DNA of 64,000 bases from an uncultured Methanosarcinales archaeon (GTDB taxonomy: Archaea; Nanobdellota; Nanobdellia; Woesearchaeales; UBA11576), in assembly GCA_964406185.1 (NCBI GenBank), contig CAYOQS010000001.1, forward strand, positions 6,121 through 70,120, read 5' to 3'. The notes beneath the pieces were generated by a model. The model was not told where the DNA came from, made no database searches, and worked only from the letters and a program-made list of their open reading frames with translations. Made by a program: the position numbers and the translations under genes. Within the stretch, counting starts at the first letter, position 1; the number at the start of each line of letters is the position of its first letter. This document shows, piece by piece, positions 24,378 through 55,650 of this stretch.

Positions 24378-25529
24378 TCACATCACACTGTAATAATCCT
24401 CGAGCACTATCTTGTCTATCTCTTTGAGGTCCTTTACGATGTAGAGCTTTCCCCGCCCTATCTGGACGACCTTCTCGGCGAGCTTGGTCCCTTTGTTGTC
24501 AAGGTTTATCCCTATGACCGATATGGTTATGCCTGCGGCTTTTGCCATGGACGCTGCTTCGAGTGTGGCTTTCTCAGGGTCTTCTCCTTTTGTGGGCAGT
24601 GCGTCTGACAGCAGCAGCAGGTGCTTGGTGACTTCCCTGCTGGGAAACATTGTTATCGCTCTCCTGATGGTGGCTGCTATGTCTGTCTCTGCCGACGCCC
24701 TGACTCTTGTTATAGCGTTGAGTATGGTGGGAAAGTCTTTGGTAGGCTCTATCACGTCTTTGATCTCTGTGCCGAAGACTATCAGCCCGACCCTGTCTTT
24801 CTCCTGTATCGCCTTGTATGCCAGCGCGACTCCTGCTTTCTTGCACGTGCCTATCTTGTCTCCTTTCATGCTTCCGCTGGAGTCGAGTGCGTATACCATG
24901 TACACCTCTCCTTTGCTCTGCCGCTCGTGTGTCTTCAGGTCTTCCATATGTATCCATAAGTGCCCTCGCCGTATCGCTGTCTTCGCTGATTTCTTGACCG
25001 CGATGTCCTTGTACCTGTCGCCTTTCCTGTAGCTGCGCGCGTACTGCCTGTCTCCGTAGTGGGATTCTTTCTTGTGTATCTTCTCTCCGCTTATCCCGCG
25101 GGGCACGATATTGTCCAGTTCCTGGATATACAGTATCAAGGATGCCAGTTCTATGCCTTTTTCTGTTATCGCGCCCTGCCTGTCGAGCACTCCGTCCTTC
25201 TTGAACCTTTCCAGTCTCTCGTCGAGCTTTTTCTTGAGCTCTCTCTGGAATTCAGGTATGCCTATGTTCTTCTCGATATAGTCAGGATCATACCCTGAGA
25301 CTGCCCGTATCAGAGCCTCTCCGAACAGGCTTTTCGTCATGCTGTAGTTCTTGACGAGCTTCTCGAACATCATGTCAGGTGTGAATGCCCCGACTCCCCT
25401 GTTCAGCGCTTCTTCTATCATCATGCCTTCATCTATCTTCTCCTTGTCGTTCTCGAGGACTGAATGCATGAGCTTCTCATCTATGTCGTCCATCCGGAGA
25501 CTGCCGTCCAGCTCTTCGACCCTGGACAT
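24378..25529 (-). CDS. VWA domain protein (ChlD-like C-terminal half)
   Basis: 383 aa. The C-terminal VWA has the MIDAS motif YALDSSGSM ... T ... LLSDALPT. The N-terminal roughly 190 aa are helical. Confidence 0.8.
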   Translation of the reverse strand: MSRVEELDGSLRMDDIDEKLMHSVLENDKEKIDEGMMIEEALNRGVGAFTPDMMFEKLVKNYSMTKSLFGEALIRAVSGYDPDYIEKNIGIPEFQRELKKKLDERLERFKKDGVLDRQGAITEKGIELASLILYIQELDNIVPRGISGEKIHKKESHYGDRQYARSYRKGDRYKDIAVKKSAKTAIRRGHLWIHMEDLKTHERQSKGEVYMVYALDSSGSMKGDKIGTCKKAGVALAYKAIQEKDRVGLIVFGTEIKDVIEPTKDFPTILNAITRVRASAETDIAATIRRAITMFPSREVTKHLLLLSDALPTKGEDPEKATLEAASMAKAAGITISVIGINLDNKGTKLAEKVVQIGRGKLYIVKDLKEIDKIVLEDYYSVM

Positions 25530-25575
25530 GTCAGAAATATGTGCTTGTCCTTCCTTCTTCTCTTCAGCGCCTATG

Positions 25576-26607
25576 CTAGGGGCCTTCGCCTTCTTCTGTC
25601 TCTTTCTCGAGGCCCTGCTGCTCCCTGAAATCCTGGAGCTTCTCCTTGACGAGATCCTGCGGTGACTGCAGGTATTGTGCTGAGGGTTTGAGACGTATCC
25701 TGTGGCTCAACACAGAGACTATGACATCCTCTATGTCTTTCCATCCGACCTGTTGCTTGTTTTTGAGTAGCGCGTTGGTCTGTGCCCTTTCGCACAGACC
25801 TATTGTCGCCCTTACGCTTGGGAGTTTCTCGAGCTTGTCGCTCTCCCTGAGAAGTCTTACGAACATGACCGCGAGTTTCTTCGTCGGTTCGGGAAAGTCA
25901 ATGAACTTCTGTGCTTCCTGGTCGACTATCTGCTCTTCATGCTCTTGGGTCTCAGGATATTGCATGTATGCTATGTCAAACCGGTCCATGAGCACGTCTG
26001 AGAGCGTCTCTGTGCTTGTGTCTTCAGGATTCATGGTCGCTATGAATATGAAGTTGGCTTCAAGGTCTACATCATAAGAACCGATCGTGACTGTCTTCTC
26101 CTGCAGCGCCTGCAAGAGTGCGTTCTGGAGCTTCTCGGGAGCCCTGTTTAGCTCGTCGAAGAAAAGTATTCCGTTGTTTGCCTTGAATATCTTTCCTGGT
26201 GTGAATGCCTCTATGGATAGCGGTCCGAACTTTATCGCTTTTGCAGGGTCTATGTCTCCTATCAGGTCTTCTGCTGTCAGGTCAGGGCTTCCCTGTACCC
26301 TGACGAACCTGTCAGCTCCGGTCACCGTCTTCCTGCCCTGTGTCTTGCCTGCCCTGCATTCAGGACATACTGGGCTGTCCGGGCTGCAGTGGTATGGGCA
26401 GTCGTTTACCTCGACCTCGGGCAGTGTGCTGGCGATGTTCTTTGCCAGGGTTGTCTTGCCTATGCCTGGCGGCCCTATTATCAGGACGTTCCTGCCTGCG
26501 AGGAGTGCTGACTTTACCTGTCTCTTGACCTCGTCCTGGCCTATTATGTGTGCGAATCCTCTGTCCTGTTCGAGGAATGATTGCCTTAGCTGTTCTGCAA
26601 GTCTCAT
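25576..26607 (-). CDS. AAA+ ATPase of the ChlI/BchI (Mg-chelatase subunit I-like) family with a Cys-rich insert
   Basis: 343 aa with IIGQDEVK, Walker A GPPGIGKTT, the insert NDCPYHCSPDSPVCPECRAG, Walker B ILFFDELNRA and sensor IFIATMNPED. Confidence 0.85.
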   Translation of the reverse strand: MRLAEQLRQSFLEQDRGFAHIIGQDEVKRQVKSALLAGRNVLIIGPPGIGKTTLAKNIASTLPEVEVNDCPYHCSPDSPVCPECRAGKTQGRKTVTGADRFVRVQGSPDLTAEDLIGDIDPAKAIKFGPLSIEAFTPGKIFKANNGILFFDELNRAPEKLQNALLQALQEKTVTIGSYDVDLEANFIFIATMNPEDTSTETLSDVLMDRFDIAYMQYPETQEHEEQIVDQEAQKFIDFPEPTKKLAVMFVRLLRESDKLEKLPSVRATIGLCERAQTNALLKNKQQVGWKDIEDVIVSVLSHRIRLKPSAQYLQSPQDLVKEKLQDFREQQGLEKETEEGEGP

Positions 26608-29430: not shown

Positions 29431-30156
29431 TTAAGCGCCTGCCGGCGCACCAGCATAATCTGTATCTGTCAGGTATCTTGCTGGTGGCCTTCCTTTGTCA
29501 GCAGGTCTTTCATTTACGATGCCCTTTTCGGCCTCCTGTTTCTCTCTCGTCGGGGGAAGCCTTTCGGCTGCTTCCCAGCGCATCTGTCTTCCTGCGCTGT
29601 TGTACAGCCTGTCGCCACAGTAGTAGAGGTTTATCTGCCCTTTTGTTTCGCCCGGATGGTTTTCGCCCAATGTAAGGATTGCGACTGAGTCGCCTATCAG
29701 TTCTGATGAGCATAGTGCGCTTATGGTCCTTCCGCCAGGCCCGTCCTCTTCCTGTGTGAAGTCCATGAACTCCGATATGTCGCAGTCGATGCCGTGCCTT
29801 TCCTGGTATGCGACGTCGTCTGCCGGCAGGTAAACTCCTGCTCCGACGATGCGCCCGTCGGAATTGACTATGGTTGCGAGGTCGCGTTCGCGCTTGGAAG
29901 CTACCACGTCTGCGATGTCCTCTTCGTGTATGTTGTGCGTCCTTCCGTTGTATGGCTTGGCGTTCCTGAGGTGCTTGTCAAGCCGGGATAGCTCTTCATC
30001 GCGTCTTATGACGAAAGTTATGCCATGACCGTCTGTCCTGTCGCGTACATTCGTGAGGATGTCATACACCCTGCATATGTTGTTGTAAAAATTGCTTCCC
30101 TCTGTGACATATCCTGTGAGGGCCTGTCTGAATCCGTTTACCTCGGTATTTGTCAT
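29431..30156 (-). CDS. hypothetical protein; only weak resemblance to the DisA_N (diadenylate cyclase) fold, with catalytic motifs not conserved
   Basis: I chose ATG 30156, with AGGTG 6 nt upstream; the track start at 30165 is GTG. The segments HGITFVI, NSDGRIVGAGVYLP and GGRTISALCSSELIGDSVAILTLGE loosely parallel GALIVI / DGAVII..AgcyLP / GTRHRAAlGiSE..vvVSEE. The DGA and RHR motifs are absent. Confidence 0.45.
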   Translation of the reverse strand: MTNTEVNGFRQALTGYVTEGSNFYNNICRVYDILTNVRDRTDGHGITFVIRRDEELSRLDKHLRNAKPYNGRTHNIHEEDIADVVASKRERDLATIVNSDGRIVGAGVYLPADDVAYQERHGIDCDISEFMDFTQEEDGPGGRTISALCSSELIGDSVAILTLGENHPGETKGQINLYYCGDRLYNSAGRQMRWEAAERLPPTREKQEAEKGIVNERPADKGRPPARYLTDTDYAGAPAGA

Positions 30157-30594
30157 CTCTGGCACCTGCTTATTTGTTGATATTTAAGTCTCTGAATCGC
30201 ATTTAAACGATTATTTTGACTTTTCGAAAGACATAAAAGGTATAAAAGAGCTCAGATAATTTTTAAAGAACCTAAAATGGCCTCTTTTTTATTTTAAATC
30301 TTCCAATAATTATTATATTAGTCCTAATATTTAAAATTTACCTTTCAATATTACGAGAAATCGCAAAAACCTGATTTTAAGCCATTTTGAAGGACAAAAA
30401 CAACGTTTGATCTCAGAATGACAAAATTAATAAGAGACCAGGCAATCACAAAAAACCATAGCAGGGAGCTTCTGGAGAGTATTTAAACCACGTATCCGGG
30501 CGATAGTCCATTTTGGCCTGGACGCGAAATAAACGAAAGCTTTAAATATAACTTCGATTTTGTTACTACTAATCTGAGGTAAATTAACTTTAAA

Positions 30595-32229
30595 ATGGCA
30601 TCTGCTGACAAGGTAAAAAGGCTGATAGCGAAGATAAGGTCCCAGTCCACAAGACTGCAGGTCCTGAACGAGCTGATAGAGATAGAGACCTCGACCAAGG
30701 ATGTCTACCAGATGCTCAAGGAGATGCTCCTTCTGACCGTCAAGGCGATAGGTGTAGAGCATGGTTTCATAATCCTATACAGGAAGGACTCGCAGAACCC
30801 TTTTGAGTACGGTGCGACCAACACTTCTGATCAGTTCGAGGACAAGACCCTTGTCAGGGACATCTGCAACAACATAATCAAGACGCACAAGCCGGTCATC
30901 ATAAATGATACGCGCATGCATAGGCGCCTCAGGCGGTGCAAGATCAAGAACATGCTTGCCCTTCCGCTCATGTCAGGCAAGATACCTGTTGGCTTGTTCC
31001 TGGTGATGAACAAGAACAAGCATCTTTTCAAGAAACGCGACCTCATACTTTTCAGGATGATATGCAAGTTCGTAGCTGGTGCTGTCGAGCACGCGAAGGA
31101 CACGCAGGACCTTGAGGAAAAGGACAAGGAGCTTGCCACTATCTATGCCATCGATAGGATAAGGGATACTATCAAGGATTTCAACACGATGATGGAAGCC
31201 GTGCTCCAGGAGCTGACGCAGGTAATCGACGCTAAGCTCGCTTTCTTCCTTTTGTACAACAAGAAGACCAACAAGACAGAGCTGAAGATCTCAGGCCAGC
31301 TCAAGTCGTCCAGCTTCGTGCATAACAATGCCAATTATATATATGAGATATCAAGATCTACGCTGAACAACGGCGAGCTCATCGAGTTCAATGATGTCAG
31401 CAAGGAGATAAAGTCCGCGATATGCACACCCATAGTCGTGAGTGATGATACGATGGGTGTCTTCGGCGTGATAAACGCTAACTCCCCGGGCGGGTTCACC
31501 AGGGTGGACAAGAAACTGCTCAACGCGATCGCGAAGCAGTCCGACTCGGCTGTGTTCGAGGATCTTGAGAAGAACGAGATCAAGCAGGCGTTCGGGCGTT
31601 ATGTGAGCCCTGATGTCATCGAGGAGATCCTTTCCGATCCTGAGAAGAACTATATGAAGACAGACAAACGCGAGATCACTGTGCTGTTCTCTGACATAAG
31701 GGGCTTCACGTCCATGTCTGAGAACCTGAAGCCTGAGCAGGTGGTAGAGATGCTGAACGAGCATTTCGAGGTTATGTCTGAGATCATCATGAGGAACCGC
31801 GGGACTCTCGACAAGTTCGTCGGGGATGAGATTATGGCTCTTTTCGGCGCCCCGGTATACAGCGAGTCCCATGCGCTGAAGGCGATCAAGACCGCGCTTG
31901 AGATGCAGAAGGCGCAGACAGAGCTTTCCAGGAAGTGGAAGAAGAAGTTCGGCAGGGATGTTGACATAGGCATCGGAATCAATACGGGCGAGATGATCGT
32001 CGGGAACATAGGCTGCAAGCAGATGATGGACTACACTGTCATCGGCGACAGCGTCAACACAGCGGCAAGGCTCTGCGGCGCTGCCAAGGCAGGGCAGATA
32101 CTGATAACTGAGAACACCAAGGCCGAGGTGAAGAAGCTCGTCAAGACGAGCGAGATTGAGCCGATCAAGGCGAAGGGCAAGTCCAAGCCGCTGTCAGTCT
32201 ACAGCGTGACAGGATTGGTCAAGCAGTAA
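30595..32229 (+). CDS. class III adenylate/guanylate cyclase with two N-terminal GAF-like domains
   Basis: 544 aa. The cyclase core has ITVLFSDIRGFTSMSE, KFVGDEIMALFGAP, GINTGEMIVGNIG and YTVIGDSVNTAARL. The Lys before FVGD suggests ATP specificity. The N-terminal roughly 330 aa have two GAF-like repeats. Confidence 0.85.
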   Translation: MASADKVKRLIAKIRSQSTRLQVLNELIEIETSTKDVYQMLKEMLLLTVKAIGVEHGFIILYRKDSQNPFEYGATNTSDQFEDKTLVRDICNNIIKTHKPVIINDTRMHRRLRRCKIKNMLALPLMSGKIPVGLFLVMNKNKHLFKKRDLILFRMICKFVAGAVEHAKDTQDLEEKDKELATIYAIDRIRDTIKDFNTMMEAVLQELTQVIDAKLAFFLLYNKKTNKTELKISGQLKSSSFVHNNANYIYEISRSTLNNGELIEFNDVSKEIKSAICTPIVVSDDTMGVFGVINANSPGGFTRVDKKLLNAIAKQSDSAVFEDLEKNEIKQAFGRYVSPDVIEEILSDPEKNYMKTDKREITVLFSDIRGFTSMSENLKPEQVVEMLNEHFEVMSEIIMRNRGTLDKFVGDEIMALFGAPVYSESHALKAIKTALEMQKAQTELSRKWKKKFGRDVDIGIGINTGEMIVGNIGCKQMMDYTVIGDSVNTAARLCGAAKAGQILITENTKAEVKKLVKTSEIEPIKAKGKSKPLSVYSVTGLVKQ

Positions 32230-32252: not shown

Positions 32253-32648
32253 CTAGAGCACTATTACCAGCACTATGCCTGCTATGAACATGAGATGTCC
32301 CAGCGCTAGCACGCCGTATGAGATCTGTTCATCCTGGGGTAGTCTGTTCCACCACGCAGGAGCTCCCTTTAGAACAGGCCCCATGTTCTTGAAGAAGTAT
32401 GGCAGTTTCTTGGTGAAGAAGTCCTGGAAGAACATCTGCACAGCTTTCATGTAGAGCTTTATGTCGAATGCTTTCTTCTGGCCTGGTGTTGAGGGAGCTT
32501 TTGGTGTCTCCCCTTTCTTGGGCGCTCCTGATTCCCCGCCCTGAGCTGCCTGAGTCCCCTGCTTGCCTGCCTGCGGAGCAGACGGTTTCTTCAGGAAAAG
32601 TCCTTTGACCTTGTTGATTATGTCCTGGAATCCTGGCATGATATACAC
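32253..32648 (-). CDS. hypothetical tail-anchored membrane protein with a P/G/A/Q-rich segment
   Basis: 131 aa with PSAPQAGKQGTQAAQGGESGAPKKGETPKAPSTPGQ and the C-terminal TM helix VLALGHLMFIAGIVLVIVL. Confidence 0.5.
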   Translation of the reverse strand: MYIMPGFQDIINKVKGLFLKKPSAPQAGKQGTQAAQGGESGAPKKGETPKAPSTPGQKKAFDIKLYMKAVQMFFQDFFTKKLPYFFKNMGPVLKGAPAWWNRLPQDEQISYGVLALGHLMFIAGIVLVIVL

Positions 32649-32751
32649 CTTTTTTTACTGACGGGGTATGCCTTCACCGCATACTGGAAAACACATGGGA
32701 AAGGATATTGACTGCGGCGATCTGATGGCAAATCTATGGGCTGGACGGAAG

Positions 32752-35088
32752 TCAATAGCTCAACCCATAGGGATTGAACTCTGTTTTGCCTTTATTAACT
32801 TTTCTTTTCTTAAGTTCTCTCTCAAGCCAGTTGAGCCATCTGCGTTTTATTTCTGCAGGGTCTAGCTTGCCTTTGGATGATTTCACTTCCTCTGATATTA
32901 TGTGGAACCTGTCGTTGCTCTTTATGACGAAAGGTGCTTCGAGGATGTCCATGTCGTCGAGCTCTTCGGCTTTCTTGACTAGCTCCTCCTTGAGCTGTCC
33001 GCGGAGCTCTATGTTCTCCCATAAGGCGTCCCAGTCGCCTGCGAAGTCAGGGACATTGGCGGCTATCGCCTTGAGTATCTCTGAGTCGCCGTCGAGCAGT
33101 TCGTCTGTGGGTGCGAGATCGTCTGTCTTGGAGTCGTATTTCATGAGGTCGACGAAACCATGCTCGAGCATGGGGTCTTCCTGCCAGGTCTTTCTGACCT
33201 CTGTTATCTGCGTCACCCTCCTGAACCTGTGCAGGCCATCCGCTGACTTTATGGGTGTCGCGACTATGATTATGTCTGTCGCCTTGAAGCTTGTCTTGGG
33301 TATCCCTATGTCGTTGACCACCCTGTCGAAGAGCCCGAACGGTGAGTCTGCGTGTATCGTGCCTGCCACCACATTGGCTGCCGCGCCGACCCTCATCGCT
33401 TCGTATAGCGCTACTGCCTCCTTGCTCCTGACCTCTCCCACGATGAGTGCGCTGTCTCCCAGCCGCAGAGTGCTGCGTATGCCGTCTGCTGCGTTCATCT
33501 CGCTGCTGCCTTTGGCGAGAGCCGACGCCACTTTCATCGGCTGGACATTGAACCCTAGACGCCTCATAGCTGCGGTGGGCAGCTCGAGCGTGTCCTCGAC
33601 AGTGATTATCCTGTACCTTCTCATTATCTCTATGAGGAGTGATGAGAGGAAGCTTGATTTTCCGCTTGACCTTGTCCCGCAGACCATGGTGCTTCTTGTC
33701 CCGTCGACAAGGAAGCTCAGCAGGCCTGCAGCCAATGGGTTGATCATCTTGTATTTTATGAAGAGCGGCAGGGTCCATGGCTTGTCCCTGTGCCTCCTGA
33801 ACGAGAACGCGAGCCCATCCGGATCCAGCGGCCTGGTTATTGTGGACACCCTTACCGAGGCTCCGGGCAGTTCCAGCTCTGTGTCGAGTATCATGTTGGC
33901 CTCGTCGAGGGGCCTTCCTGATATCATCCTGAGCTTGGTGGCCCAGCTTTCAGCCTCTGTGACGGTTGGTATGATATTGGTGACGCAGTCTGCGTAGTCT
34001 CCGTGCACTATGAATATCGGTAGCCTTCCCTGTGGGCTGTTGACCGATATGTCCTGTATTTTCTCATCCTGGAGCAGCACTTCTACGAGGCCGAAACCTA
34101 TTGTGTACCTTACGAGTATCTTGGCGAGGTCGTCCATCTCTTCTTCTGAGACTTTCATGTTCTTGTAGGCGACGAGCTCTGCGATCAGGTCCCTTCCGAC
34201 GTTGACGAACACCTCCCTCATCCTTTCGGGATCAGTGAATTCCTGTTTTGTGGGCTTGTGTTCTGCGAGTATGTTCCTTGCCAGGTCTAGAATCTCGTAC
34301 TTCTCCTCGGAAAGCTTGAATTCTGGAGGGGTCATGTGGTATATGTACTGGACAGAGTCGGGAAGTTTGAAGACAGTTATCTCTGTTTCCTCCCCTATCG
34401 TATAGCTGTCCATCTCCTCTCCTTCAGGCGGGTAGTTGGCCATGAGCTTTGTCCACATGAAGTCAGGCTTTATCATTGGGTGGAAGAAGTTGCGGTATAT
34501 GTCCCTCTCACCGACCTTGTATCCTGCGAGAAAGGGCTTTGCTATCGTTACAAGCCGGGTCTTCTCCATAAGGTCTAGCAGGTATGCGAGCACCTTTGTG
34601 TAGTTCTCTATGCCAGGCTTTAGCTTATCGTCCACGACCTTTAGGTAGTTGACCCTCTCTTCTCTCAGCGTGCGCTTGAGCTGGACGTACATGCCTATAG
34701 GGTCTGACCTGAGCTGCTGGAAGATCATGTTCTGCAGTTCTGTGAACCATTTGTTGGCGAACTGCTTTGATGCCTGGTCTATCTGCAACGCGTTTAGTGA
34801 GAATAGGTCTTTCTGTCTTGTGAGCTTATCGTAGAGGAGGGCTATCTCCTTGAGAAGGGCTGTCTGGTTGTAGTCGTATTCATACTCCCTTTTCTGTATA
34901 AATATTATCTTGGTAACGTTCTTGGACTCTATCAGGTTGTCGCACGTCCTTGCCATGACCCGTGGATTGTCCTCTATCGATGGGACCATAGGTGCGCCTT
35001 CGTAATTGACGCGCATGACATTATCCTCTCCCTCTCTCGTCACTTCATATCCGTATATGGGGAGTTTCGCCCCTCCGAAGAGTGCCAT
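32752..35088 (-). CDS. type II/IV secretion / type IV pilus family ATPase (FlaI/VirB11/GspE-like), long form
   Basis: 778 aa with Walker A VCGTRSSGKSSFL and Walker B-like ITVEDTLEL, then GDSALIVGEVRSKEA and AGTIHA. The large N-terminal extension is typical of archaeal members. Confidence 0.85.
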   Translation of the reverse strand: MALFGGAKLPIYGYEVTREGEDNVMRVNYEGAPMVPSIEDNPRVMARTCDNLIESKNVTKIIFIQKREYEYDYNQTALLKEIALLYDKLTRQKDLFSLNALQIDQASKQFANKWFTELQNMIFQQLRSDPIGMYVQLKRTLREERVNYLKVVDDKLKPGIENYTKVLAYLLDLMEKTRLVTIAKPFLAGYKVGERDIYRNFFHPMIKPDFMWTKLMANYPPEGEEMDSYTIGEETEITVFKLPDSVQYIYHMTPPEFKLSEEKYEILDLARNILAEHKPTKQEFTDPERMREVFVNVGRDLIAELVAYKNMKVSEEEMDDLAKILVRYTIGFGLVEVLLQDEKIQDISVNSPQGRLPIFIVHGDYADCVTNIIPTVTEAESWATKLRMISGRPLDEANMILDTELELPGASVRVSTITRPLDPDGLAFSFRRHRDKPWTLPLFIKYKMINPLAAGLLSFLVDGTRSTMVCGTRSSGKSSFLSSLLIEIMRRYRIITVEDTLELPTAAMRRLGFNVQPMKVASALAKGSSEMNAADGIRSTLRLGDSALIVGEVRSKEAVALYEAMRVGAAANVVAGTIHADSPFGLFDRVVNDIGIPKTSFKATDIIIVATPIKSADGLHRFRRVTQITEVRKTWQEDPMLEHGFVDLMKYDSKTDDLAPTDELLDGDSEILKAIAANVPDFAGDWDALWENIELRGQLKEELVKKAEELDDMDILEAPFVIKSNDRFHIISEEVKSSKGKLDPAEIKRRWLNWLERELKKRKVNKGKTEFNPYGLSY

Positions 35089-35311
35089 CCATTCACCTTT
35101 TTGTTTTCTTTTTTCTGTTCGTGCTGCACCTGTGGTCCTTACGGCAGGAGCACGATTATTTAATCACATTTATATACCACTATCACATGCTAACATAAAC
35201 TTTAATACCTCAGTATCGACATTGATTGTTAAATCTTTTTATAGATTGTGATGGATTATTAAACCTTGATATTCGAGGTTTAAAAAAGGATTGGAAAAAG
35301 AGTTGTTTGTA

Positions 35312-35911
35312 ATGGCTGATCAACCTGCTGCACCGCCTGGAATGCCTCCGCAGGGAGGCGCTTCTCCTGGAGCAGGTGGTGCTCCATCACCCGGCGGCAG
35401 TCCTCCACCTCCGAAGAAGAAAGGAGGGCTTTTCGCCCCGAAGCCGAAGGAAGGTGCGGACCTTACAAAATCTGTCTCTGAACTGGCAGGGGAGCTGAAC
35501 AACATCAGCAGGAGGCTGATGGTCCTTGAGGAACGTTACACCAACCTCCGGAAGAAGACGCAGGTTACTGACCAGAACATGCTCAGCAGCAACAAGAAGG
35601 TGATGGCTGAGATCCAGACTGTCCATGAGCAGATGGATGAGCGTAAGAAGGAGATCGATGACATCAATGATAAGATGAGGATCATCGTTCGCGAGCTCAA
35701 GGAGTGCGCAAAGAGACAGGACGTGGAGGTCCTGCAGAAGTACATCAATATCTGGGAGCCTGTGAATTTCGTGACGCGTGATACTGTCGTGAAGATGGTG
35801 GCTGACCAGGTGGAGTCACAGTTCAAGGACCTTAACATCCGCCTTCAGCAGGAGGATTATATCAAGGAGCAGATCCGGCTCGCTTTGCAGGACATGAAGC
35901 TCGAGAAGTGA
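35312..35911 (+). CDS. hypothetical coiled-coil protein with a P/G/A-rich N-terminus
   Basis: ATG at 35312 (MADQPAAPPGMPPQGGASPGAGGAPSPGGSPPPPKKK); the track start is TTG. The remaining 130 aa or so have heptad-like E/K/L composition. Confidence 0.55.
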   Translation: MADQPAAPPGMPPQGGASPGAGGAPSPGGSPPPPKKKGGLFAPKPKEGADLTKSVSELAGELNNISRRLMVLEERYTNLRKKTQVTDQNMLSSNKKVMAEIQTVHEQMDERKKEIDDINDKMRIIVRELKECAKRQDVEVLQKYINIWEPVNFVTRDTVVKMVADQVESQFKDLNIRLQQEDYIKEQIRLALQDMKLEK

Positions 35912-35944
35912 ATCGGTGTCATATCGGCACTGCCCGCGTCTATC

Positions 35945-36391
35945 TCATTCTTTTTTTGCGAGAAATATTCCTGCGAACAGGAGTATTGCTGCGACAAGGT
36001 ATATTATCTGGTTGACCATGCCAGGATATTCTGGTATGGTGAAGGTGAGCGCTCCAAGCTCGTAAAGTGTTGGCACAAGCGCCAGCACTGCTATTACTAT
36101 GCCTGCCGTGATCGTCACCCATCTGAGCGTGTGTTCTTCTTTGATGCCTTCAGCTATGAGGCTTTTTGCAGCGAAGATGACCACGACTGTGACTACGTAT
36201 TTGATTATGCCTGCCTCTCCGAATGTGAAGGGCAGCACTCCCAGGTCGTGCAGGAGGGGTATCCCTCCGAGAAGCAGGAGGAGAATGCCGTTGAAGCCGT
36301 AGTTCATCCTTTTCGGCATGATTGCTGTCGACAGGAGTGCTATGACGACGACCGCAGTGACTATGTTGGTGAGCGCCGCTTCAGATACCAT
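35945..36391 (-). CDS. hypothetical integral membrane protein (about 4-5 TM)
   Basis: 148 aa, almost entirely hydrophobic helices. It lies 40 nt downstream of the DUF87 ATPase gene on the same strand. Confidence 0.6.
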   Translation of the reverse strand: MVSEAALTNIVTAVVVIALLSTAIMPKRMNYGFNGILLLLLGGIPLLHDLGVLPFTFGEAGIIKYVVTVVVIFAAKSLIAEGIKEEHTLRWVTITAGIVIAVLALVPTLYELGALTFTIPEYPGMVNQIIYLVAAILLFAGIFLAKKE

Positions 36392-36431
36392 CTATATCAC
36401 ATGTGATTTCATTCGGGCAGGATTGAGGGTT

Positions 36432-37799
36432 TCAGTCTCCTTTTATGGCTGTTGGACTCGCGCCGCCGTGCCAGGTGAACCTGGGCCTGACCCTGATCAT
36501 CATTATCTTCTCGTTCAGGTCGTCGAAAACCACGGCTGTTCCTTTCACTGTGGGCAGGTTGTTCATCGCGCGCTCTATCCCGTGCTCCATGTAGCTCTGC
36601 GCTAGCAGTCCGAGCGCCTGCACGTCGAGCCTCGCGGTTATCCTGTGCGAGAGCACGATGTCTGACTGTGTCATGACATCTGTGTGTATCTTTCCTGGCT
36701 GCTGGGTCGCTACTACGAGGCATGTGCCGGGCTGCCTTCCTTCTCTCATGACTATCTTGAGTGGCTCTGTTGCCGCGTTGGCATCCTTCTCGTCTTTCGG
36801 GAGGAATTCGTGTGCTTCGTCTATTACAAGCCATACGAGGGGCATGTCCTGCTTCTGGGCATCTGCCTGGCTCTTCTCCTCGAAGTACTGTTCGAGGTAT
36901 TTTATCTCTGAAAGCTCTTCCTCTTTCCTGAATGCCATCCTTGTGACGAAGAGATGTCTTGATACTATGCCCACTACCAGTGCCTTGACATCCCATCCTC
37001 CAGGCATGGTGGCGTAGCAGCTGACGTCGAGCACGCTTATCTGCCCGCCTTTGGCAAGCTCTTCTATCGGGGTACCTTTCTCTGAGAACACCCCCCAGCC
37101 TTCTGCTGTCTGGAACATGTTCCTGACTGCAGCTCTTGTCAGCTTGTCTGTATCCTTGTCGTGTTCTATGTACCCTAGTATGTCTTTCATGAAGAACCTG
37201 TTATTATTTTCGCTGAGCTGCTCGACGATCTTCTGTATGTACAGTCCGTTGGCAGAGTACTTGTCCTGCTTGAAGGCGACACACCAGTCCTCACCTGTTA
37301 TCATGTGCGGCTCTAGAGAGAATGGCACGTCTGTCCTTATGCCTTTCTTCTTGTAGATATAGTAGTATTTTTCAGGCGTGAATATCTTGACATCGACCGG
37401 GTGCGGATCCAGGCCGTATGGGTCGAGGAGGTGCTTCTCTTTCTGGTTCGCGTGGCCCATAGTCCAGTATATTCCCATCGTGTCCAGGAGGATTATGCTG
37501 AGGTTCTGCTTGACGCTGGGCTCAAGCATTGAAAGCCCTTCTGCTATCACGCCCATGGTGTAGCTCTTTCCTCCGCCCCTCTTTCCGCAGATGAGCATGA
37601 CGTGCGCTCCTGCCACGTCCATGTAGATGTTGTTCTCCAGGAACATCCTGTCAAGTTTCTCTATGTATTGCTTGCCCAGAAGTATCGCGCCCTTGGTGCC
37701 CCATTTCTCGACGTCTTTTTCGCTCCTGCCTATGACTACGGGCAGCTTTTTCTGCTCTGCTGCCTGTTTTCTATCTTCACCTTCTTTTTCTTCGGGCAT
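36432..37799 (-). CDS. HerA/FtsK-superfamily (DUF87-like) P-loop ATPase
   Basis: 455 aa with Walker A ICGKRGGGKSYTMG and Walker B LVWLVIDEAHEFLP, and the typical ATQQPGKI late motif. Confidence 0.75.
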   Translation of the reverse strand: MPEEKEGEDRKQAAEQKKLPVVIGRSEKDVEKWGTKGAILLGKQYIEKLDRMFLENNIYMDVAGAHVMLICGKRGGGKSYTMGVIAEGLSMLEPSVKQNLSIILLDTMGIYWTMGHANQKEKHLLDPYGLDPHPVDVKIFTPEKYYYIYKKKGIRTDVPFSLEPHMITGEDWCVAFKQDKYSANGLYIQKIVEQLSENNNRFFMKDILGYIEHDKDTDKLTRAAVRNMFQTAEGWGVFSEKGTPIEELAKGGQISVLDVSCYATMPGGWDVKALVVGIVSRHLFVTRMAFRKEEELSEIKYLEQYFEEKSQADAQKQDMPLVWLVIDEAHEFLPKDEKDANAATEPLKIVMREGRQPGTCLVVATQQPGKIHTDVMTQSDIVLSHRITARLDVQALGLLAQSYMEHGIERAMNNLPTVKGTAVVFDDLNEKIMMIRVRPRFTWHGGASPTAIKGD

Positions 37800-37947
37800 G
37801 GGTGTGGCCTTATGTTCGGTTGTCTGCTGTTGTTGACTTTCGCTTTTTGTTGACTTTCACCTGTTATTGTTTATTGTCGTTTATTTAAATGTTTTTGCCG
37901 TCTTGGGGGTCGAAAGATTTAAAAACACTGTTCGCTATGGTCGGAGC

Positions 37948-38586
37948 ATGCCTGAAGATACTCCTACTGAAGCTGTGTTGAGCATGAAACAGCAGGGTCT
38001 GACGAACAATCAGATCGTTTCCGCGCTTCAGAGGCAGGGCTACAACACGAATCAGATTCTTGATGCTATGAATCAGGCAGATATGCGAATGCAAACGAAG
38101 AGGCCGTTTGATGTTGAAGGTGGTAATATGGCGGATCCGAATGCTCCTCCTGAACAGGCGGGCGGTGCTTATCCTGGCGCCCCTGTTGGTGCTCCCGGTG
38201 CGGGGATGGGTGCTGGTGAAGAGCTGCCCATGGATGTAGGTGGTGGTGTTGAGACAGAGCGTATTGAGGAGATAGCTGAGGCTATAATCGAGGAGAAATG
38301 GACTGACTTGATGGCTAACATCAACAGGATTGTCGAGTGGAAAGAGAAGACAGAGACGCGCATTACACAGCTTGAGACGACCATGAAATCGATGAAGGAT
38401 GATTTCGACAAGATGCACAGCTCTGTGCTTGAGAAAGTGGGCGAGTATGACAGGCATATCGGTGATGTGGGTACTGAGGTCAAGGCTCTTGAGAAAGTTT
38501 TCCAGAAGGTGCTGCCCGGCTTCATCGAGAACGTTTCAGAGCTTTCCAGGATAACTGACGACCTGAAGAAGCAGAGCCCGAAATAG
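37948..38586 (+). CDS. hypothetical protein: small helical N-domain + G/A/P-rich linker + coiled coil
   Basis: ATG at 37948, with TATA-like atttaaaaa about 25 nt upstream; the track start is not ATG. The domains are AVLSMKQQGLTNNQIVSALQRQGYNTNQILDAMNQA, the linker PGAPVGAPGAGMGAG, and a helical C-terminal half. Confidence 0.55.
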   Translation: MPEDTPTEAVLSMKQQGLTNNQIVSALQRQGYNTNQILDAMNQADMRMQTKRPFDVEGGNMADPNAPPEQAGGAYPGAPVGAPGAGMGAGEELPMDVGGGVETERIEEIAEAIIEEKWTDLMANINRIVEWKEKTETRITQLETTMKSMKDDFDKMHSSVLEKVGEYDRHIGDVGTEVKALEKVFQKVLPGFIENVSELSRITDDLKKQSPK

Positions 38587-38652
38587 TTTTTGCTGGTTTT
38601 TTTTGTCTTTTGTGTTCTTATCTTTATATTATCGTTCTGTATGCTGTCTGCC

Positions 38653-39222
38653 CTACTGTTTTGTGGAGGCAAGAAGCCTTACTGTCAATGCGCCTATCAT
38701 CATCAGGAAGAAGAAGCCCAGTGTCTTCGGGTGGAAGATGACCCTTCCTACGTTCTGGTTGAAGTCTCCTGTGTCTGTTGTTGTATCTACTTCTGCTGTG
38801 ACGTTTGCCTCGCCCGGCTCTGCAGAGTACGGCAGCATCGCCCCTCCGTAAACGCTTCCTAGCGCTCCTATGAATATTATTAGCCCTATTATGAGGAAGA
38901 ACCAGTGGGGTGTCTGCCATACTGCGGCTACCTTGACTATCTTCTCCATCGGCGTGCCCAGGGAGAGCAGCAGAAGGAAGAAGAACAGTATGAGTATGAA
39001 CAGGAGCACGAACCATGGAGCCATTATGCCGATGACCTGGACCACGCCGGGCACGAAGAGCATCATTATGGCTATGCACAGCGCTATGAGCGAATGGAGG
39101 CCTTTGTTGTCTCCGAGTATCTTTGATTTCTCCAGGAGCGCGAATACGATCACGAATACGAGAAGGACTGGGAATATGACGTTGAAATGCTGTGCTAGTC
39201 CTATGTCCAAAAATGTTGCCAT
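38653..39222 (-). CDS. uncharacterised polytopic membrane protein, paralog 1 of 3
   Basis: 189 aa. It shares the N-terminal motif ...(V/I)(I/F)(L/F)P(F/V)(L/I)LVF(T/V)(I/V)(V/M)FA(L/I)(L/M)(E/Q)K... with the next two genes and has 4-5 TM helices. Confidence 0.6.
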   Translation of the reverse strand: MATFLDIGLAQHFNVIFPVLLVFVIVFALLEKSKILGDNKGLHSLIALCIAIMMLFVPGVVQVIGIMAPWFVLLFILILFFFLLLLSLGTPMEKIVKVAAVWQTPHWFFLIIGLIIFIGALGSVYGGAMLPYSAEPGEANVTAEVDTTTDTGDFNQNVGRVIFHPKTLGFFFLMMIGALTVRLLASTKQ

Positions 39223-39278
39223 CGATATACCTCTTTTTCAGCAAGGATTGAAATATAAGATGAAAAAAGATAAAAGGA

Positions 39279-39917
39279 TTATTTGTTCTTGGCTCCCCCG
39301 AACAGATCGCCCCATGAGTCCCTGAACTTCTCGAGGCTGGTAGCTGTTCCCTTCTCTTTCGGCTCTTTCGTGATGTACCATATGATTATGGCAAATATCG
39401 CCACCACTATGAGCATGGCCTGCGTGTCAGGGTTGTCCAGCCAGTAGAGCCAGTTGGGCAGGTAGTAGAACCATCCTGCTGCTCGTCCGAAGATGTAAAC
39501 GACGAGTATGAATGCGAAGAACGCTATCCAGCCTGATAGTGCGCCACCCCATTCTGCCTTGCCTCCGAACAGGCCTACGATCAGCAGGACCATCAGGATC
39601 GCGACGAGCACTATGGATACCTGTGGAAGCGCTGCGTTTATTATGTTGACTATATCCGCGTCAGGAGGGTAGTATCCCATCACGTGTGGTATCACTACGG
39701 CCAGCGCCATGACTAGTGCTATGACCACGTTGAATGACTTGTTCTGTGGCGTGCCCTGTCCCAGGGGCTTGACTTTCTGCATTATTGCGAACACTATCGT
39801 GAATACTAGTATGAAAGGGAGTATGACGTCAGAGAGGCCCCATTCCTGCATCCTGTAGAGTACGTCGTAGAAATAACCGCCTCCACCTCCATAGCCGGTA
39901 GCGTAATGATTTGCCAT
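39279..39917 (-). CDS. uncharacterised polytopic membrane protein, paralog 2 of 3
   Basis: 212 aa with GLSDVILPFILVFTIVFAIMQKVKPLG and a Gly-rich N-terminus (GYGGGGGYFY). Confidence 0.6.
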   Translation of the reverse strand: MANHYATGYGGGGGYFYDVLYRMQEWGLSDVILPFILVFTIVFAIMQKVKPLGQGTPQNKSFNVVIALVMALAVVIPHVMGYYPPDADIVNIINAALPQVSIVLVAILMVLLIVGLFGGKAEWGGALSGWIAFFAFILVVYIFGRAAGWFYYLPNWLYWLDNPDTQAMLIVVAIFAIIIWYITKEPKEKGTATSLEKFRDSWGDLFGGAKNK

Positions 39918-40084
39918 TTTTCTTTAACCTCCTTTTTGAGCGTTTGTTTCGGGTGTGTCTTTTTTAGTATGATTTAGTATGATTTGATATGCTTTGGTAT
40001 TATTGGTTTATTATGGTTTGTCTGACATAAATTTCCTTTATTATTAAAATTTATGCTATTATATGCTTACGCAGGTATTATTGT

Positions 40085-40639
40085 TTAGGTTTCTGTGTCT
40101 GTTTTCTTCGGGCTGGGCTCCCTGACTATCCAGTATACGAAGCCGACCATCGCTGCCACGAGCAGTATCGATGCGACGACTGTGCTGTCATAATGCTGCA
40201 CGATCCACAGCCATGCAGGTTCGAGCCATCCGAGGGCGTTCATGAATATGAGTACTATGCCCAGGAACATGATGATCGTGAAGAACTTTGCCCATCCGCC
40301 CTGCAGGAAGACTCCCTCTTTTGTCTCTTTCATGAAGCTTCCGATGAGTATGAGGAAGCATATGCTCATCATGAGAAGCAGCACCATGTTGGCCATGGTC
40401 TCGTTTATAACTGCGACAAGCCTTGATGATGCCACTACAAGGAATGCCGTGACGAACGCTACCATGGCGTTGAGGTTCTTTCTTGTGAACTCCCCGTCTG
40501 CTGTCTTCTCTGTTCCGAAGACCCTTGTCTTTTCCATTATCGCGAACATCACTGTAAAGACGAGAAGGAAAGGCAGCACTACATCGTAGATTCCCAGCCT
40601 GACGAAAAATTCGATTACACCTCTAAATGTGCTGACCAT
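40085..40639 (-). CDS. uncharacterised polytopic membrane protein, paralog 3 of 3
   Basis: 184 aa with GIYDVVLPFLLVFTVMFAIMEKTRVFG and the same TM layout. Confidence 0.6.
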   Translation of the reverse strand: MVSTFRGVIEFFVRLGIYDVVLPFLLVFTVMFAIMEKTRVFGTEKTADGEFTRKNLNAMVAFVTAFLVVASSRLVAVINETMANMVLLLMMSICFLILIGSFMKETKEGVFLQGGWAKFFTIIMFLGIVLIFMNALGWLEPAWLWIVQHYDSTVVASILLVAAMVGFVYWIVREPSPKKTDTET

Positions 40640-40766
40640 ATAAGCGCCATAAGGTTAAAAAGAGTATATAAATCTTTCGCTTGGTTTTGGACGCCGAAAT
40701 GACGAATCAAGCCATAAAACGGAAGATTTATATGAATATGGCTTTATCTGCGTTTTGGTGTTATTC

Positions 40767-41345
40767 ATGCTTGACAAAAAGGACTTGGAAAAGATTAAGG
40801 GCCGTATCGAGGCGTTTGAGGCGCAGCGTGATTCTGTGATAAAGCAGTCGCGCGAGATCGTGAAGCTCAGCAAGAAGGTCATCTACGCGGTCCACAGGAA
40901 TGATATGAAGTCCGCTGAGAAGGCAGTATCTGAGATGAAGTCTGGTATGGAGAAGCTGGAGGGTTTTGTAGATCACCCCAAGCTGATGAGTTCCGGCTCT
41001 TTCAAGGTCGCTGTGCAGGAGTACGTGGAGGCTCTCTGTTTCTTTGAGCTGATGAAGAACAATCACATCCCTCCGAACTCTGAGCTCGGTCTCGATCCTG
41101 AGTTCTACCTTATGGGCCTGATAGACCTTACAGGTGAGCTTGTCAGGAAAGCGATAAATTCCGCGATAAATGATGATTATGACACGAGCGTCAAGCTCAA
41201 GGGTCTGGTCTCTGACCTGTATGATGAGCTTATGCTGTTCGACTTCGCGGGGGGTGAGCTGCGCAAGAAGTTCGATTCGATCAAGTACGACCTCAAGAAG
41301 CTTGACGACCTTGTCCTTAGCCTGAAGCTCAGCAAGAAGATTTAA
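40767..41345 (+). CDS. translin-family protein
   Basis: About 192 aa. It has QEYVEALCF ... EFYLMGLIDLTGELVRKAI ... LYDELMLFD...GELRKKFDSIKYDLKKL, the translin/TRAX pattern. ATG at 40767. Confidence 0.7.
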   Translation: MLDKKDLEKIKGRIEAFEAQRDSVIKQSREIVKLSKKVIYAVHRNDMKSAEKAVSEMKSGMEKLEGFVDHPKLMSSGSFKVAVQEYVEALCFFELMKNNHIPPNSELGLDPEFYLMGLIDLTGELVRKAINSAINDDYDTSVKLKGLVSDLYDELMLFDFAGGELRKKFDSIKYDLKKLDDLVLSLKLSKKI

Positions 41346-48873: not shown

Positions 48874-50085
48874 TTATTTCTCGAAGATTTTTTTCGCATC
48901 TGATATTATCCTGTCTTCGTAGTCGGATTGCTTCTCCCCTTCGTCTTTTTCCTTGTCAAGTGAGAGCATCAGGCTGTTTATGAGATCTTTTTCCTGTTCC
49001 CTGCTAAGGTCCATGCACTTGATCTGGCCGATGTGCTCTTCGACGACGAGCTTCTCTGCATCTTCTGTTGTGTCTGCTTTCACCTTGATCTCTTCGAAAT
49101 CTTTGGATCTTAGTTTGCCTGTGTTCTTGAGTATGGTGAGCGCGTCTTTCTCCTGTATGAGTTCTGATATCCTGCGCGTGTCTATCTCCGATGTCTTCCC
49201 TGCCTCCAGCGTGCCCGAAAGTCGGAGAAGGACTATCGCTCCTTTCAGGTCTTTCCTGTTGATCTCTTCGGTGAGTTCTTGGGTGACCTGCTGTGGTGTC
49301 TTGTGGTCGCAGTCCATGGGTATCGTAACGACCTGCGCGGGCTCGATCCTGCGGCATTCTGTTTTGCCGTCATCGTATATGTAGAATGATCCGCCTTTTA
49401 GCTTTTCCATCTCAGAGAAGCTGTTCGGGAATGTGGGTCCGGGATATACTATGTTCCTGTATCCTTCGATGCTGGCTTCCCTGACTATATGGACGTGTCC
49501 GCCTGCGTAGTAGTCCATGCCGCGTGGCAGCACGGAGACCGGCGCTGATTCCATCTTTTCAAGCTCTTCAGGCTTTAGCTCTGACAGTGCTGTGTGGAAC
49601 ATGAATATCCTGAAACCTTCCTCGCTCTCCAGGTTGTCCCTTATCAGTCCTTCGTAGTATTTTTTCTCGAGCATGCCTTTCTTTCCTATCATACCTGTTA
49701 TCTTGGCCCCTGTCTTCAGGTCTTTTGTGAAGTGAAGCTTTAGCTTCTCGCCCACCACTTCTCCTTTGCATACGTTGATGACCAGCTCTGCCTCTTCGAG
49801 GACTTCGAGCATCGTCTTTCCTGACGGTGAGAAATCGTGGCTGCCTGCTATCGTATAGACAGGTATGTCTTTCCTCTTGAGCTTCTTAAGCTCAGACACT
49901 GCGAGCTTGATGCTGTCTATTGATGGGAGGCTTGTGTTGAAAAGGTCTCCTGATATCAGCACGAAGTCTACCTTTTCTGCCAGGCTGATGTCGATCGCGG
50001 TGGCGAAGCTCTTTTCGCTGAGCTCTCTCAGCTTGGACTCTTTCCAGCTTCCGAGATGTATGTCTGCCATGTGTGAGAACTTCAC
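48874..50085 (-). CDS. Mre11/SbcD-like calcineurin-fold nuclease
   Basis: 403 aa with the motifs MKFSHMADIHLGSW, SGDLFN, AGSHD, MFHTAL and GGHVH. The C-terminal roughly 150 aa are unassigned. No Rad50 gene is adjacent. Confidence 0.7.
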   Translation of the reverse strand: MKFSHMADIHLGSWKESKLRELSEKSFATAIDISLAEKVDFVLISGDLFNTSLPSIDSIKLAVSELKKLKRKDIPVYTIAGSHDFSPSGKTMLEVLEEAELVINVCKGEVVGEKLKLHFTKDLKTGAKITGMIGKKGMLEKKYYEGLIRDNLESEEGFRIFMFHTALSELKPEELEKMESAPVSVLPRGMDYYAGGHVHIVREASIEGYRNIVYPGPTFPNSFSEMEKLKGGSFYIYDDGKTECRRIEPAQVVTIPMDCDHKTPQQVTQELTEEINRKDLKGAIVLLRLSGTLEAGKTSEIDTRRISELIQEKDALTILKNTGKLRSKDFEEIKVKADTTEDAEKLVVEEHIGQIKCMDLSREQEKDLINSLMLSLDKEKDEGEKQSDYEDRIISDAKKIFEK

Positions 50086-54846: not shown

Positions 54847-55650
54847 TCAGAGCCTCTTGACAGATTTCGGCTCTCTCTCCAGCATCTTGCCGATGACCAC
54901 TTCCATGAGCTTCGCATCTCTCTTGGCGACTTTCTCAAGCTTGGCCTCCTGCTCTGCCTTGTCCACCAGCTCTTCTATCTTTCCCTGGACATATTTGATG
55001 TGTTCTAGTATTGGCTTGAAGTTTATGTCTGCCGCTTCATGCCCTTTCAGCTTATCCTCAACCTTCTTCTGCTCCTCATCGAGCATCCGCTCTATCTCTA
55101 CAGAGTCCTGTTCGTAGGCTGTGGATATCGCCTCGAAAAGCGGCTTGATCTTGTGTATAGCCCCCTGCATGTTGGTGGCTGTGTGCATGAGCTGCGTGAC
55201 TCCGGGCTTCACAGACACCAGGCCTTTTTCTTTCATGTTAGTATACAGCTCATCGACCAGGCCGAGTATCCTCCTCTCGTCATTGTAGAAAGCGCTCAAC
55301 TGCCCCCCCATCTCCGTAAGCAGGTGTTTGCCCTTGTCAAGATCCTCCAGCACATCTCCCCTCAGCTTCTCTATCTCAAAGGTCATCTTGCTGAGCCTGT
55401 CCAGCTCTTCCTCATGGCTCTTGTCAGGGTGCGCCCGTATCTCTTCAGCGATCTGCCAGCTTTCCTTGAGGAGATCGTGTATCTTCGCAAGCTTTTCCAT
55501 CATGGTCTTGCCGAAGAGCTTGTGCTTCTTAAGGAACTTGAGAAATATCTTCACATCGAGTTCCTTCGCCTCCTCAACGGTCTTTTTCGCGAGTGGAAAC
55601 GCTTCTTTCAGTGTCTTTTCAAAACCAGGATATTCAGAGAGATCGCCCAT
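54847..55650 (-). CDS. hypothetical helical / coiled-coil protein (CC1 of the cluster)
   Basis: 267 aa, with its ATG 26 nt downstream of the HerA-like stop. E/K/L-rich. Confidence 0.55.
   Translation of the reverse strand: MGDLSEYPGFEKTLKEAFPLAKKTVEEAKELDVKIFLKFLKKHKLFGKTMMEKLAKIHDLLKESWQIAEEIRAHPDKSHEEELDRLSKMTFEIEKLRGDVLEDLDKGKHLLTEMGGQLSAFYNDERRILGLVDELYTNMKEKGLVSVKPGVTQLMHTATNMQGAIHKIKPLFEAISTAYEQDSVEIERMLDEEQKKVEDKLKGHEAADINFKPILEHIKYVQGKIEELVDKAEQEAKLEKVAKRDAKLMEVVIGKMLEREPKSVKRL

Follow-up and report, generated by a model that had tools for sequence, protein, structure and literature searches.

Archaea of the DPANN group such as Woesearchaeota depend on cell contact, and their surface machinery is almost entirely uncharacterized. 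In archaeal type IV filament (TFF) systems, the closest described counterparts of the locus reported here, the secretion ATPases have variable N-terminal domains, one subclade (4F) has a coiled-coil partner and includes nanoarchaeal members with no identifiable pilins, and pilin genes are often unlinked from the operon of the ATPase and platform (Makarova, Koonin & Albers 2016, PMC4858521). We analyzed a 64-kb stretch of woesearchaeal DNA (contig CAYOQS010000001.1 of assembly GCA_964406185.1, hereafter the window) and compared a gene cluster within it with 160 related loci. The names borne by homologues put the source organism in Woesearchaeota/Nanoarchaeota, within DPANN. The cluster encodes a secretion ATPase of the T2SSE family (T2SSE778), a tail-anchored protein (TA131), two coiled-coil proteins (CCa and CCb), three polytopic membrane proteins (M184, M212, and M189, together called M), and a HerA-like DUF87 ATPase (DUF87_455) followed by a small membrane protein (TM148). 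We think it probable that this locus is a lineage-specific, rearranged TFF-like cluster that bears new accessory proteins together with a second, accreted ATPase. A literature search found no paper describing a woesearchaeal cluster of T2SSE, M, and coiled-coil genes, and a 2026 preprint on archaeal TFF diversity does not describe it (10.64898/2026.04.22.720090). An initial annotation of the same DNA had listed nine genes here as a possible envelope translocation apparatus, and all nine are present as open reading frames (ORFs) at the coordinates in Table 1.

The core motor of the cluster is T2SSE778, which matches the Pfam T2SSE family (PF00437) at E = 8e-17 and 61 bits (cut-off 24.9) and has the intact catalytic boxes of a TFF ATPase: all of 11 orthologues keep its Walker A, Asp box, Walker B, and His box residues. 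Among solved structures it comes nearest to CpaF (1.5e-28), A. fulgidus GspE (2e-27), and FlaI (2.4e-16). NCBIfam models for FlaI and TadA match at E of about 1e-35 each, both far under their equivalog cut-offs (FlaI 124 bits, cut-off 550; TadA 123, cut-off 373), and the VirB11 model scores 60 bits (cut-off 250). The protein carries extensions of about 300 amino acids (aa) at the N terminus and about 120 aa at the C terminus, and a sequence search with the N-terminal 300 aa gave no PDB match. A variable N-terminal extension is a likeness to archaeal TFF ATPases (PMC4858521), among which clade 2 and subclade 4F have extended termini; T2SSE778 is not assigned to any named clade. The bacterial Tad/Flp system is also similar, since CpaF heads the solved sequence relatives of the ATPase core and the motor-plus-platform logic of CpaF with TadB/TadC is shared, but the cluster has no TadZ, RcpA, or other Tad parts, its ATPase is about 350 aa longer, and its envelope is archaeal. 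At one related locus (L010:678-4514, minus strand) the T2SSE ORF was called as 1278 aa, compared with the usual ~777 aa, which may reflect a fusion or an artefact of the simple ORF caller.

Relatives of this ATPase revealed a conserved layout. JGI metagenomes scanned with an 11-sequence T2SSE alignment yielded at least 571 relatives, from which we fetched 80 loci at 53-85% identity; downstream counts are based on the 46 loci with at least 3 kb of downstream flank, and upstream counts on the 32 with at least 5.5 kb of upstream flank. In the dominant woesearchaeal layout, three M genes run in one direction, CCa and CCb run in the opposite direction, and T2SSE followed by a platform-like protein of ~735 aa runs in the first direction again, all without a DUF87 gene. 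The ~735-aa protein was present downstream of T2SSE in 40/46 loci and a tail-anchored protein in 2/46, while upstream we found CCb in 20/32 loci, CCa in 22/32, three or more M genes in 20/32, and a DUF87 gene in just 4/32. Across all fetched loci, the ~735-aa gene lies immediately 3' of T2SSE in 40, with a median gap of 17.5 bp. CCb is the next gene upstream of T2SSE in 41 loci, at a median gap of 142 bp; strand was recorded for 21 of these and was opposite to that of T2SSE every time. CCa adjoins CCb in 21 loci, on the same strand in 20 of these and at a median gap of 64 bp. The grouping recurs in dozens of independent genomes, far above chance. Because most T2SSE loci have the M triplet and CC proteins without DUF87, these proteins are partners of the T2SSE ATPase and not of the DUF87 ATPase. 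The envelope apparatus proposed by the initial annotation thus stands as a conserved, membrane-associated, ATPase-driven system with uncharacterized small membrane and coiled-coil parts. DUF87 is absent from most loci.

Gene order in close relatives could also be conserved by inheritance without any joint function. A Translin-family gene, an M20 peptidase, a GAF-cyclase, and a CCA enzyme are likewise conserved near the cluster among close relatives. However, the order of M, CCa, CCb, T2SSE, and platform persists at ATPase identities as low as 55%, where the genes on either side are entirely different; the gaps between platform gene and ATPase gene and between the two CC genes are operon-like; and the cluster remains one unit through the inversions in L010 and L011. 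We therefore regard synteny without joint function as highly improbable. The Translin gene adjoins the M triplet in 16/35 loci, rearranged ones included, an adjacency that may reflect synteny or some tie to nucleic-acid handling; Translin is a recurrent neighbor and a possible member of the system.

The double T2SSF architecture is typical of the PilC, TadC, and FlaJ platforms. The ~735-aa protein encoded after T2SSE in most relatives has about 8-9 transmembrane (TM) segments and two large soluble domains. When it was split and scanned against T2SSF (PF00482), both halves of one member matched nearly the whole profile under the gathering score, and the first half alone also matched in 2 of 4 further members tested. 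As a candidate platform, the protein next to the ATPase in the relatives of this cluster would correspond to the single-gene polytopic platform of archaeal TFF systems. The initial annotation set the locus apart from standard archaellum and pilus loci, but it is not unrelated to pilus systems: the same ATPase directly precedes this T2SSF-like protein in most relatives.

The window itself departs from this layout. A tblastn search with the relatives' platform-like protein gave no match in the 64 kb, and TA131 occupies the slot that the platform-like gene has in most relatives. In the T2SSE tree, loci in which a tail-anchored protein replaces the ~735-aa gene form one long-stemmed clade that includes the window, and TA131 orthologues (100-143 aa) follow T2SSE in this subclade only. 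Among the nearest relatives of the window, genomes with the tail-anchored gene behind T2SSE have kept the platform-like protein on other contigs, as seen for those with locus-tag prefixes KY359, JW898, KKD17, and HY772 and on CAZLYC contig 5; the platform gene has therefore been relocated, not lost, in the sublineage of the window. In the three close relatives whose context we inspected, the relocated gene comes after a MoxR-DUF58-VWA group and the gene for a giant Big_9 surface protein, and a second T2SSE gene is not nearby. Thus, the remark of the initial annotation that no FlaJ/TadC-like platform was visible is true of the window and not of the system. The MoxR-DUF58-VWA/BatA group with the giant Big_9 protein, just upstream of the relocated platform gene in L166-L168, resembles a pair of genes in the window (Table 1). 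TA131 was considered as a platform remnant and rejected (hhalign probability 0.4%).

We detected no class III signal-peptide proteins in the window by a crude motif screen, the sole matches being shadow ORFs, and no A24 prepilin peptidase among the scanned window proteins. ArlH (KaiC-like), archaellin, and ArlF/G were likewise lacking from the window and from related loci. Along with the tblastn result and the family scans, this bears out the initial observation that pilin, platform, and archaellum genes are absent from the window. Pilin-like genes with class III-type N-termini, candidates for the filament subunit, were found near the platform gene at four related loci (L109, L146, L148, and L154). 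Pilins are missing at nearly all loci, the large M family keeps invariably to ~190 aa and resembles no solved fold, and the ATPase has long unique extensions at both ends, all of which would suit a system independent of pilins, such as bindosome-like surface organization, protein secretion, or a host-contact structure, with the M proteins as its working parts. Archaeal pilin genes are, however, often unlinked (PMC4858521), class III-like genes do lie beside the platform gene in a few related loci, and there is no positive evidence of another substrate, so we consider a pilin-independent system improbable. We favor instead a TFF-like machine, which shares with archaeal TFF systems a cytoplasmic coiled-coil accessory protein, would share with them pilins encoded away from the locus, and differs from them in the M triplet, CCa, CCb, and TA131, for which no counterpart was detected, and, in the window, in the unlinked platform and the HerA-like ATPase within the cluster.

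Table 1. Cluster genes and other features of the window; positions count from its first nucleotide.
Feature	Position	Strand	Description
Disulfide oxidoreductase (probable)	6519-8345	+	608 aa; basic N-terminus, one TM segment, several DsbA/GILT/thioredoxin-like domains
MoxR and DUF58/VWA pair	24378-26607	-	MoxR AAA+ gene paired with DUF58/VWA gene
DisA_N-like protein	29431-30165	-	244 aa; weak DisA_N/DAC (c-di-AMP synthase) match, E = 0.009
Double-GAF cyclase	30595-32229	+	Adenylate/guanylate cyclase, convergent with tail-anchored gene
TA131	32253..32648	-	Likely start 32639 (128 aa); P/K/G-rich N-terminus, conserved amphipathic segment, C-terminal TM segment 113-131
T2SSE778	32752..35088	-	778-aa PilB/CpaF/GspE/FlaI-family ATPase; core motor of cluster
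CCb	35291..35911	+	Likely start 35312; P/G-rich N-terminus, ~150-aa predicted coiled coil; cytoplasmic, divergent from T2SSE
TM148	35945..36391	-	4-5-TM protein, 41 bp 3' of DUF87_455, same strand
DUF87_455	36432..37799	-	455-aa HerA-clade P-loop ATPase between CCa and CCb; PF01935 E = 1e-9
CCa	37867..38586	+	Likely start 37945; ~45-aa N-terminal helical domain, P/G/A-rich linker, ~110-aa predicted coiled coil; cytoplasmic
M189	38653..39222	-	Third M paralogue
M212	39279..39917	-	Second M paralogue
M184	40085..40639	-	First of three ~190-aa paralogous (about 5-TM) polytopic proteins
Translin-family gene	40755..41345	+	PF01997 E = 2.8e-27; divergent from M triplet
Mre11/SbcD-like phosphoesterase	48874-50085	-	About 5.6 kb from second HerA-like ATPase
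GGDEF diguanylate cyclase	50682-52208	-	PF00990 E = 1.6e-39
Unannotatable gene	54847-55650	-	267 aa; adjoins second HerA-like ATPase
Second HerA-like ATPase	55677-57272	-	531 aa; PF01935 E = 1.5e-21; HerA model E = 8e-27, far under cut-off

The three M proteins were confirmed as tandem paralogues that align as one family, with 32% identity between M184 and M212 (blastp E = 7e-25) and E-values of 3e-12 and 9e-9 for the paralogy of M189. The family is defined by an amphipathic helix at the N terminus and, after it, the motif G-I-Y-D-V-V-L-P-F-L-L-V-F. A word-indexed search returned 1228 homologues, all unannotated proteins of Woesearchaeota or Nanoarchaeota, and the family comprises 2217 representative clusters, nearly all of them stand-alone proteins of ~190 aa. 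M proteins have no Pfam or NCBIfam match and an AlphaFold2 model (pLDDT 77) has no PDB fold match, so that these membrane proteins match no known transporter family. We rejected M as pilins, given that the Gly before the first TM segment has no conserved K/R ahead of it, the leader is a conserved amphipathic helix, and there are five TM segments; as prepilin peptidases, given five TM segments and no GxGD motif; and as derivatives of the platform TM region, to which a mere 10-residue motif aligns. One homologue, P0367 (365 aa), is two M-family domains fused in tandem, consistent with paralogues placed side by side in one complex.

The initial description of CCa and CCb as coiled-coil proteins with P/G/A-rich segments was correct, the linkers being confirmed. 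CCb has no TM segment and matches coiled-coil families weakly and nothing else, CCa has no significant Pfam match, and neither the cores of the two proteins nor the N-terminal domain of CCa gave anything informative against PDB. That CCa and CCb are paralogues was rejected, because their blastp match (E = 2e-5) is compositional and hhalign of the coiled-coil cores gives a probability of 0.4%. TA131 has the single C-terminal TM segment of a tail-anchored protein, as first described. TM148 has 5 hydrophobic segments and no family match in Pfam/NCBIfam searches; it is confined to the window, L005, L006, L007, and L086, relatives at least 84% identical, and is a recent addition.

The gene families, their folds, the conserved layouts, and the order in which the changes took place are established here. 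Assembly of a filament, and what the M, CC, and TA proteins do in it, we infer by analogy, and we suggest the following mechanism. The ancestral layout comprises a unit of M1-M3, a CCb-CCa operon, and a unit of T2SSE and the platform-like gene. The T2SSE hexamer would dock on the platform protein as PilB does on PilC and CpaF on TadBC, and ATP-driven motion may then pull pilin-like subunits, which would be encoded elsewhere, out of the membrane and into a filament. The M proteins may form a lineage-specific membrane sub-complex comparable to PilMNO, GspLM, or ArlX-type parts, and the CC proteins may serve as a cytoplasmic scaffold or stator round the motor. In the sublineage of the window, three changes followed: the platform gene left the cluster, with a small tail-anchored gene now after the ATPase gene; a gene for a HerA-fold ATPase entered between CCa and CCb; and, in the closest relatives, the 4-5-TM gene was added behind it.

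Several results weigh against a TFF-like machine. Full-length platform-like members match Pfam T2SSF weakly (E = 0.008) and in 4/39 members only, and the split-scan values (E = 0.0014-0.027; 17-19 bits, cut-off 25.2) are below threshold. The platform-like profile has no match in PDB and NCBIfam, and hhalign detected no significant internal repeat. There is no pilin or prepilin peptidase among the scanned proteins of the window or at most related loci, so filament formation is unproven. One relative, not confirmed from DNA, keeps M-M-M, CCa, DUF87, and CCb together with T2SSE more than 10 kb off. No relatives of known function could be detected for M, CC, and TA, so the roles assigned to these proteins are guesses, and unrelated neighbors such as Translin are likewise conserved near the cluster, so synteny alone overstates functional linkage.

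The second ATPase of the cluster, DUF87_455, has an AlphaFold2 model (pLDDT 78.9, pTM 0.79) whose top 50 Foldseek matches in PDB all belong to HerA-clade ATPases, in most cases HerA itself; VirB4, VirD4, and FtsK structures do not occur in these 50. The matches include T. kodakarensis HerA-NurA (E = 4e-17), S. solfataricus HerA (TMq 0.61), Sir2-HerA, and DUF4297-HerA, at TMq 0.5-0.61. The Walker A (GKRGGGKS), Walker B (DEAHE), and QQP motifs are invariant among 34 homologues. Short beta strands alone precede Walker A in the model, so a full HAS barrel seems to be absent. HerA, CedD, and CedB models match weakly and over the C-terminal P-loop half, the HerA equivalog model scoring 36 bits (cut-off 970) and the CedD model E = 6e-6. 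The initial assignment of this protein as HerA/VirB4-like thus survives in its first half, a HerA-type fold, but not in its second, with no VirB4 structure among the best 50 and a VirB4-type model at E = 0.026. In fold, Walker A/B, and QQP-type motifs, DUF87_455 resembles HerA, and a hexameric RecA-like core is predicted from the fold; it differs in that it is shorter, its N-terminal beta element is small, and NurA, Sir2, and nuclease partners are absent, its neighbors being coiled-coil and membrane proteins. A separate and more canonical HerA-like protein of 531 aa is encoded in the window, so the 455-aa protein is not the repair HerA of the cell. The 267-aa gene adjoining the 531-aa one might be a NurA analogue, and an Mre11/SbcD-like phosphoesterase gene lies in the same part of the window (Table 1).

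To place this family, GTDB species representatives were scanned, at least 536 DUF87 loci were found, and 80 were fetched, labeled by ORF calling and hidden Markov models, and split into classes by a neighbor-joining tree. This short HerA-like family is highly conserved, at 50-86% identity across the fetched loci, and many genomes hold two copies. Class 1, monophyletic and including the window gene, has 62-86% identity and always lies amid M, CC, and T2SSE genes, in the order M-M-M, CCa, DUF87, CCb, T2SSE, with a tail-anchored or ~735-aa polytopic protein as the final gene. The larger class, at 50-62% identity, adjoins the archaeal DnaG gene almost always (L014, L016-L084; for example L023:8826-9881, L021:8708-9874, and L038:8519-9868), and in ~40 loci also lies beside a divergently transcribed, N-terminally membrane-anchored foldase of parvulin/SurA/PrsA type. 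Because its other class adjoins a PrsA-like extracytoplasmic foldase, the short HerA-like family as a whole might possibly work at the envelope and not on chromosomal DNA ends. Some of the foldases bear a C-terminal thioredoxin-like part, and at L045 and L076 a gene for an LspA-like signal peptidase II follows closely. Since DUF87 is absent from most T2SSE clusters, and the clusters that bear it are confined to one region of the T2SSE tree, the gene is a late, subclade-specific insertion that splits the CCb-CCa operon.

That the inserted HerA-like ATPase works with this machine is a tentative proposal, against which we lean slightly. A stronger version is that the pilus-type cluster recruited a HerA-type translocase and a small membrane protein as a machine with two motors for import or export of DNA or other macromolecules. 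Its placement would fit: the DUF87 position inside the cluster is kept across 62%-86% identity and through rearrangements, the co-directional TM148 gene follows 41 bp after it in the closest relatives, and the relative with the distant T2SSE (not confirmed from DNA) retains DUF87 with M, CCa, and CCb though T2SSE has moved. HerA-clade ATPases are DNA translocases, a point that is fold-based here, Translin as a nucleic-acid-binding protein is a recurrent neighbor, and the foldase beside the sister class hints at an envelope role for the family. However, most T2SSE/M/CC clusters have no DUF87 gene, TM148 is very recent, and the ATPase has no TM segment by hydropathy and no known membrane-binding domain. 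There is also no CedB or VirB4 homology beyond the common P-loop, no VirB4, VirD4, or FtsK among the top 50 folds, and no nuclease, DNA-binding receptor, or channel of known type present. We judge a two-motor machine to be unlikely and retain the reading of a TFF-like cluster with an accreted ATPase.

The initial annotation had drawn an architectural analogy to the Ced DNA-import system, which we could not sustain: the CedB model matches DUF87_455 at E = 0.066 and 11.8 bits (cut-off 700), and the fold is HerA-like. The two have in common a HerA/FtsK-superfamily ATPase near small polytopic membrane proteins, a likeness of architecture only, but here the membrane proteins match no NCBIfam model, and their conserved partner is the T2SSE ATPase, not DUF87. 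Type IV secretion systems (T4SS; VirB11, VirB4, and VirD4) and Gram-positive competence systems (ComGA with ComFA/ComEC) are functional analogies in having a secretion ATPase, a second unrelated P-loop motor, and membrane proteins, but we found no VirB4, VirD4, ComEC, or ComFA homology, and the pairing is confined to one woesearchaeal subclade. HerA anti-phage systems (Sir2-HerA, DUF4297-HerA, MADS) were also compared: PADLOC HerA and mad8 models match generically (E ~1e-18), and match the 531-aa protein equally, but there is no adjacent effector gene and the DUF87 family is near-universal and single-locus in Woesearchaeota, unlike defense islands. The window cluster lacks the defining features of archaellum, Ced, T4SS, HerA-NurA, and HerA defense systems.

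Mobile-element roles for DUF87_455 were considered as well. It was rejected as a viral packaging ATPase, the best viral folds being phage HerA-like proteins and packaging ATPases reaching TMq <=0.35; a phage DNA collection gave one short match. It was likewise rejected as a plasmid conjugation ATPase, with plasmid matches weak except for a Haloplanus gene. This gene, on plasmid NZ_CP098519.1 of Haloplanus sp. HW8-1 (116089-117258; L085), encodes the closest relative from a cultivated organism (389 aa, 31% identity, E = 6e-57). It belongs to a two-gene cassette in which it overlaps an upstream 380-aa gene with a weak PglZ-like match, and the cassette lies near genes labeled BREX ATP-binding-domain protein and PD-(D/E)XK nuclease.

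Other genes of the window include two nucleotide second-messenger enzymes, the double-GAF cyclase and the GGDEF diguanylate cyclase (Table 1), in one small-genome archaeon; the former is kept beside the tail-anchored gene in close relatives. A similar-sized ORF (232-256 aa) lies in close relatives where the window has the DisA_N-like gene, a likeness of size and position. The 608-aa protein is probably an extracytoplasmic disulfide oxidoreductase, judging from its domains. A search for expression data located the cluster sequence in DNA metagenomes only. Many GTDB metagenome-assembled genomes with these Woesearchaeota-type genes (the records of L005, L008, L016, L019, and others) are titled "uncultured Methanosarcinales archaeon," and the single homologues P0065, P0031, and P0345 carry the labels Patescibacteria, Thermoproteota, or Armatimonadota; these odd names are probably placeholders or binning errors.

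Our analysis delimits a widespread woesearchaeal cluster of a secretion ATPase, a platform-like protein, three 5-TM paralogues, and two coiled-coil proteins, which is probably a major TFF-like machine of Woesearchaeota and in which four of the five protein families have no known relatives. It also brings to notice an unstudied short HerA-like family linked to DnaG and a PrsA-like foldase. The uncoupling of the platform, the gain of the tail-anchored protein, and the insertions of the HerA-like and small TM genes lead to testable hypotheses on how such machines acquire motors. In the most far-reaching reading, to which we give little credence, a pilus-type machine has been remodeled to a two-motor envelope translocator by the grafting of a HerA-type hexameric pump and its own small membrane partner between the scaffold genes, with the platform gene moved away; it would be an independent archaeal analogue of competence systems and T4SS that would serve uptake of DNA or other macromolecules by a host-dependent cell. 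If the second motor were truly coupled to the first, the finding would matter for the question of how archaea with reduced genomes obtain nucleic acids or proteins from their hosts.

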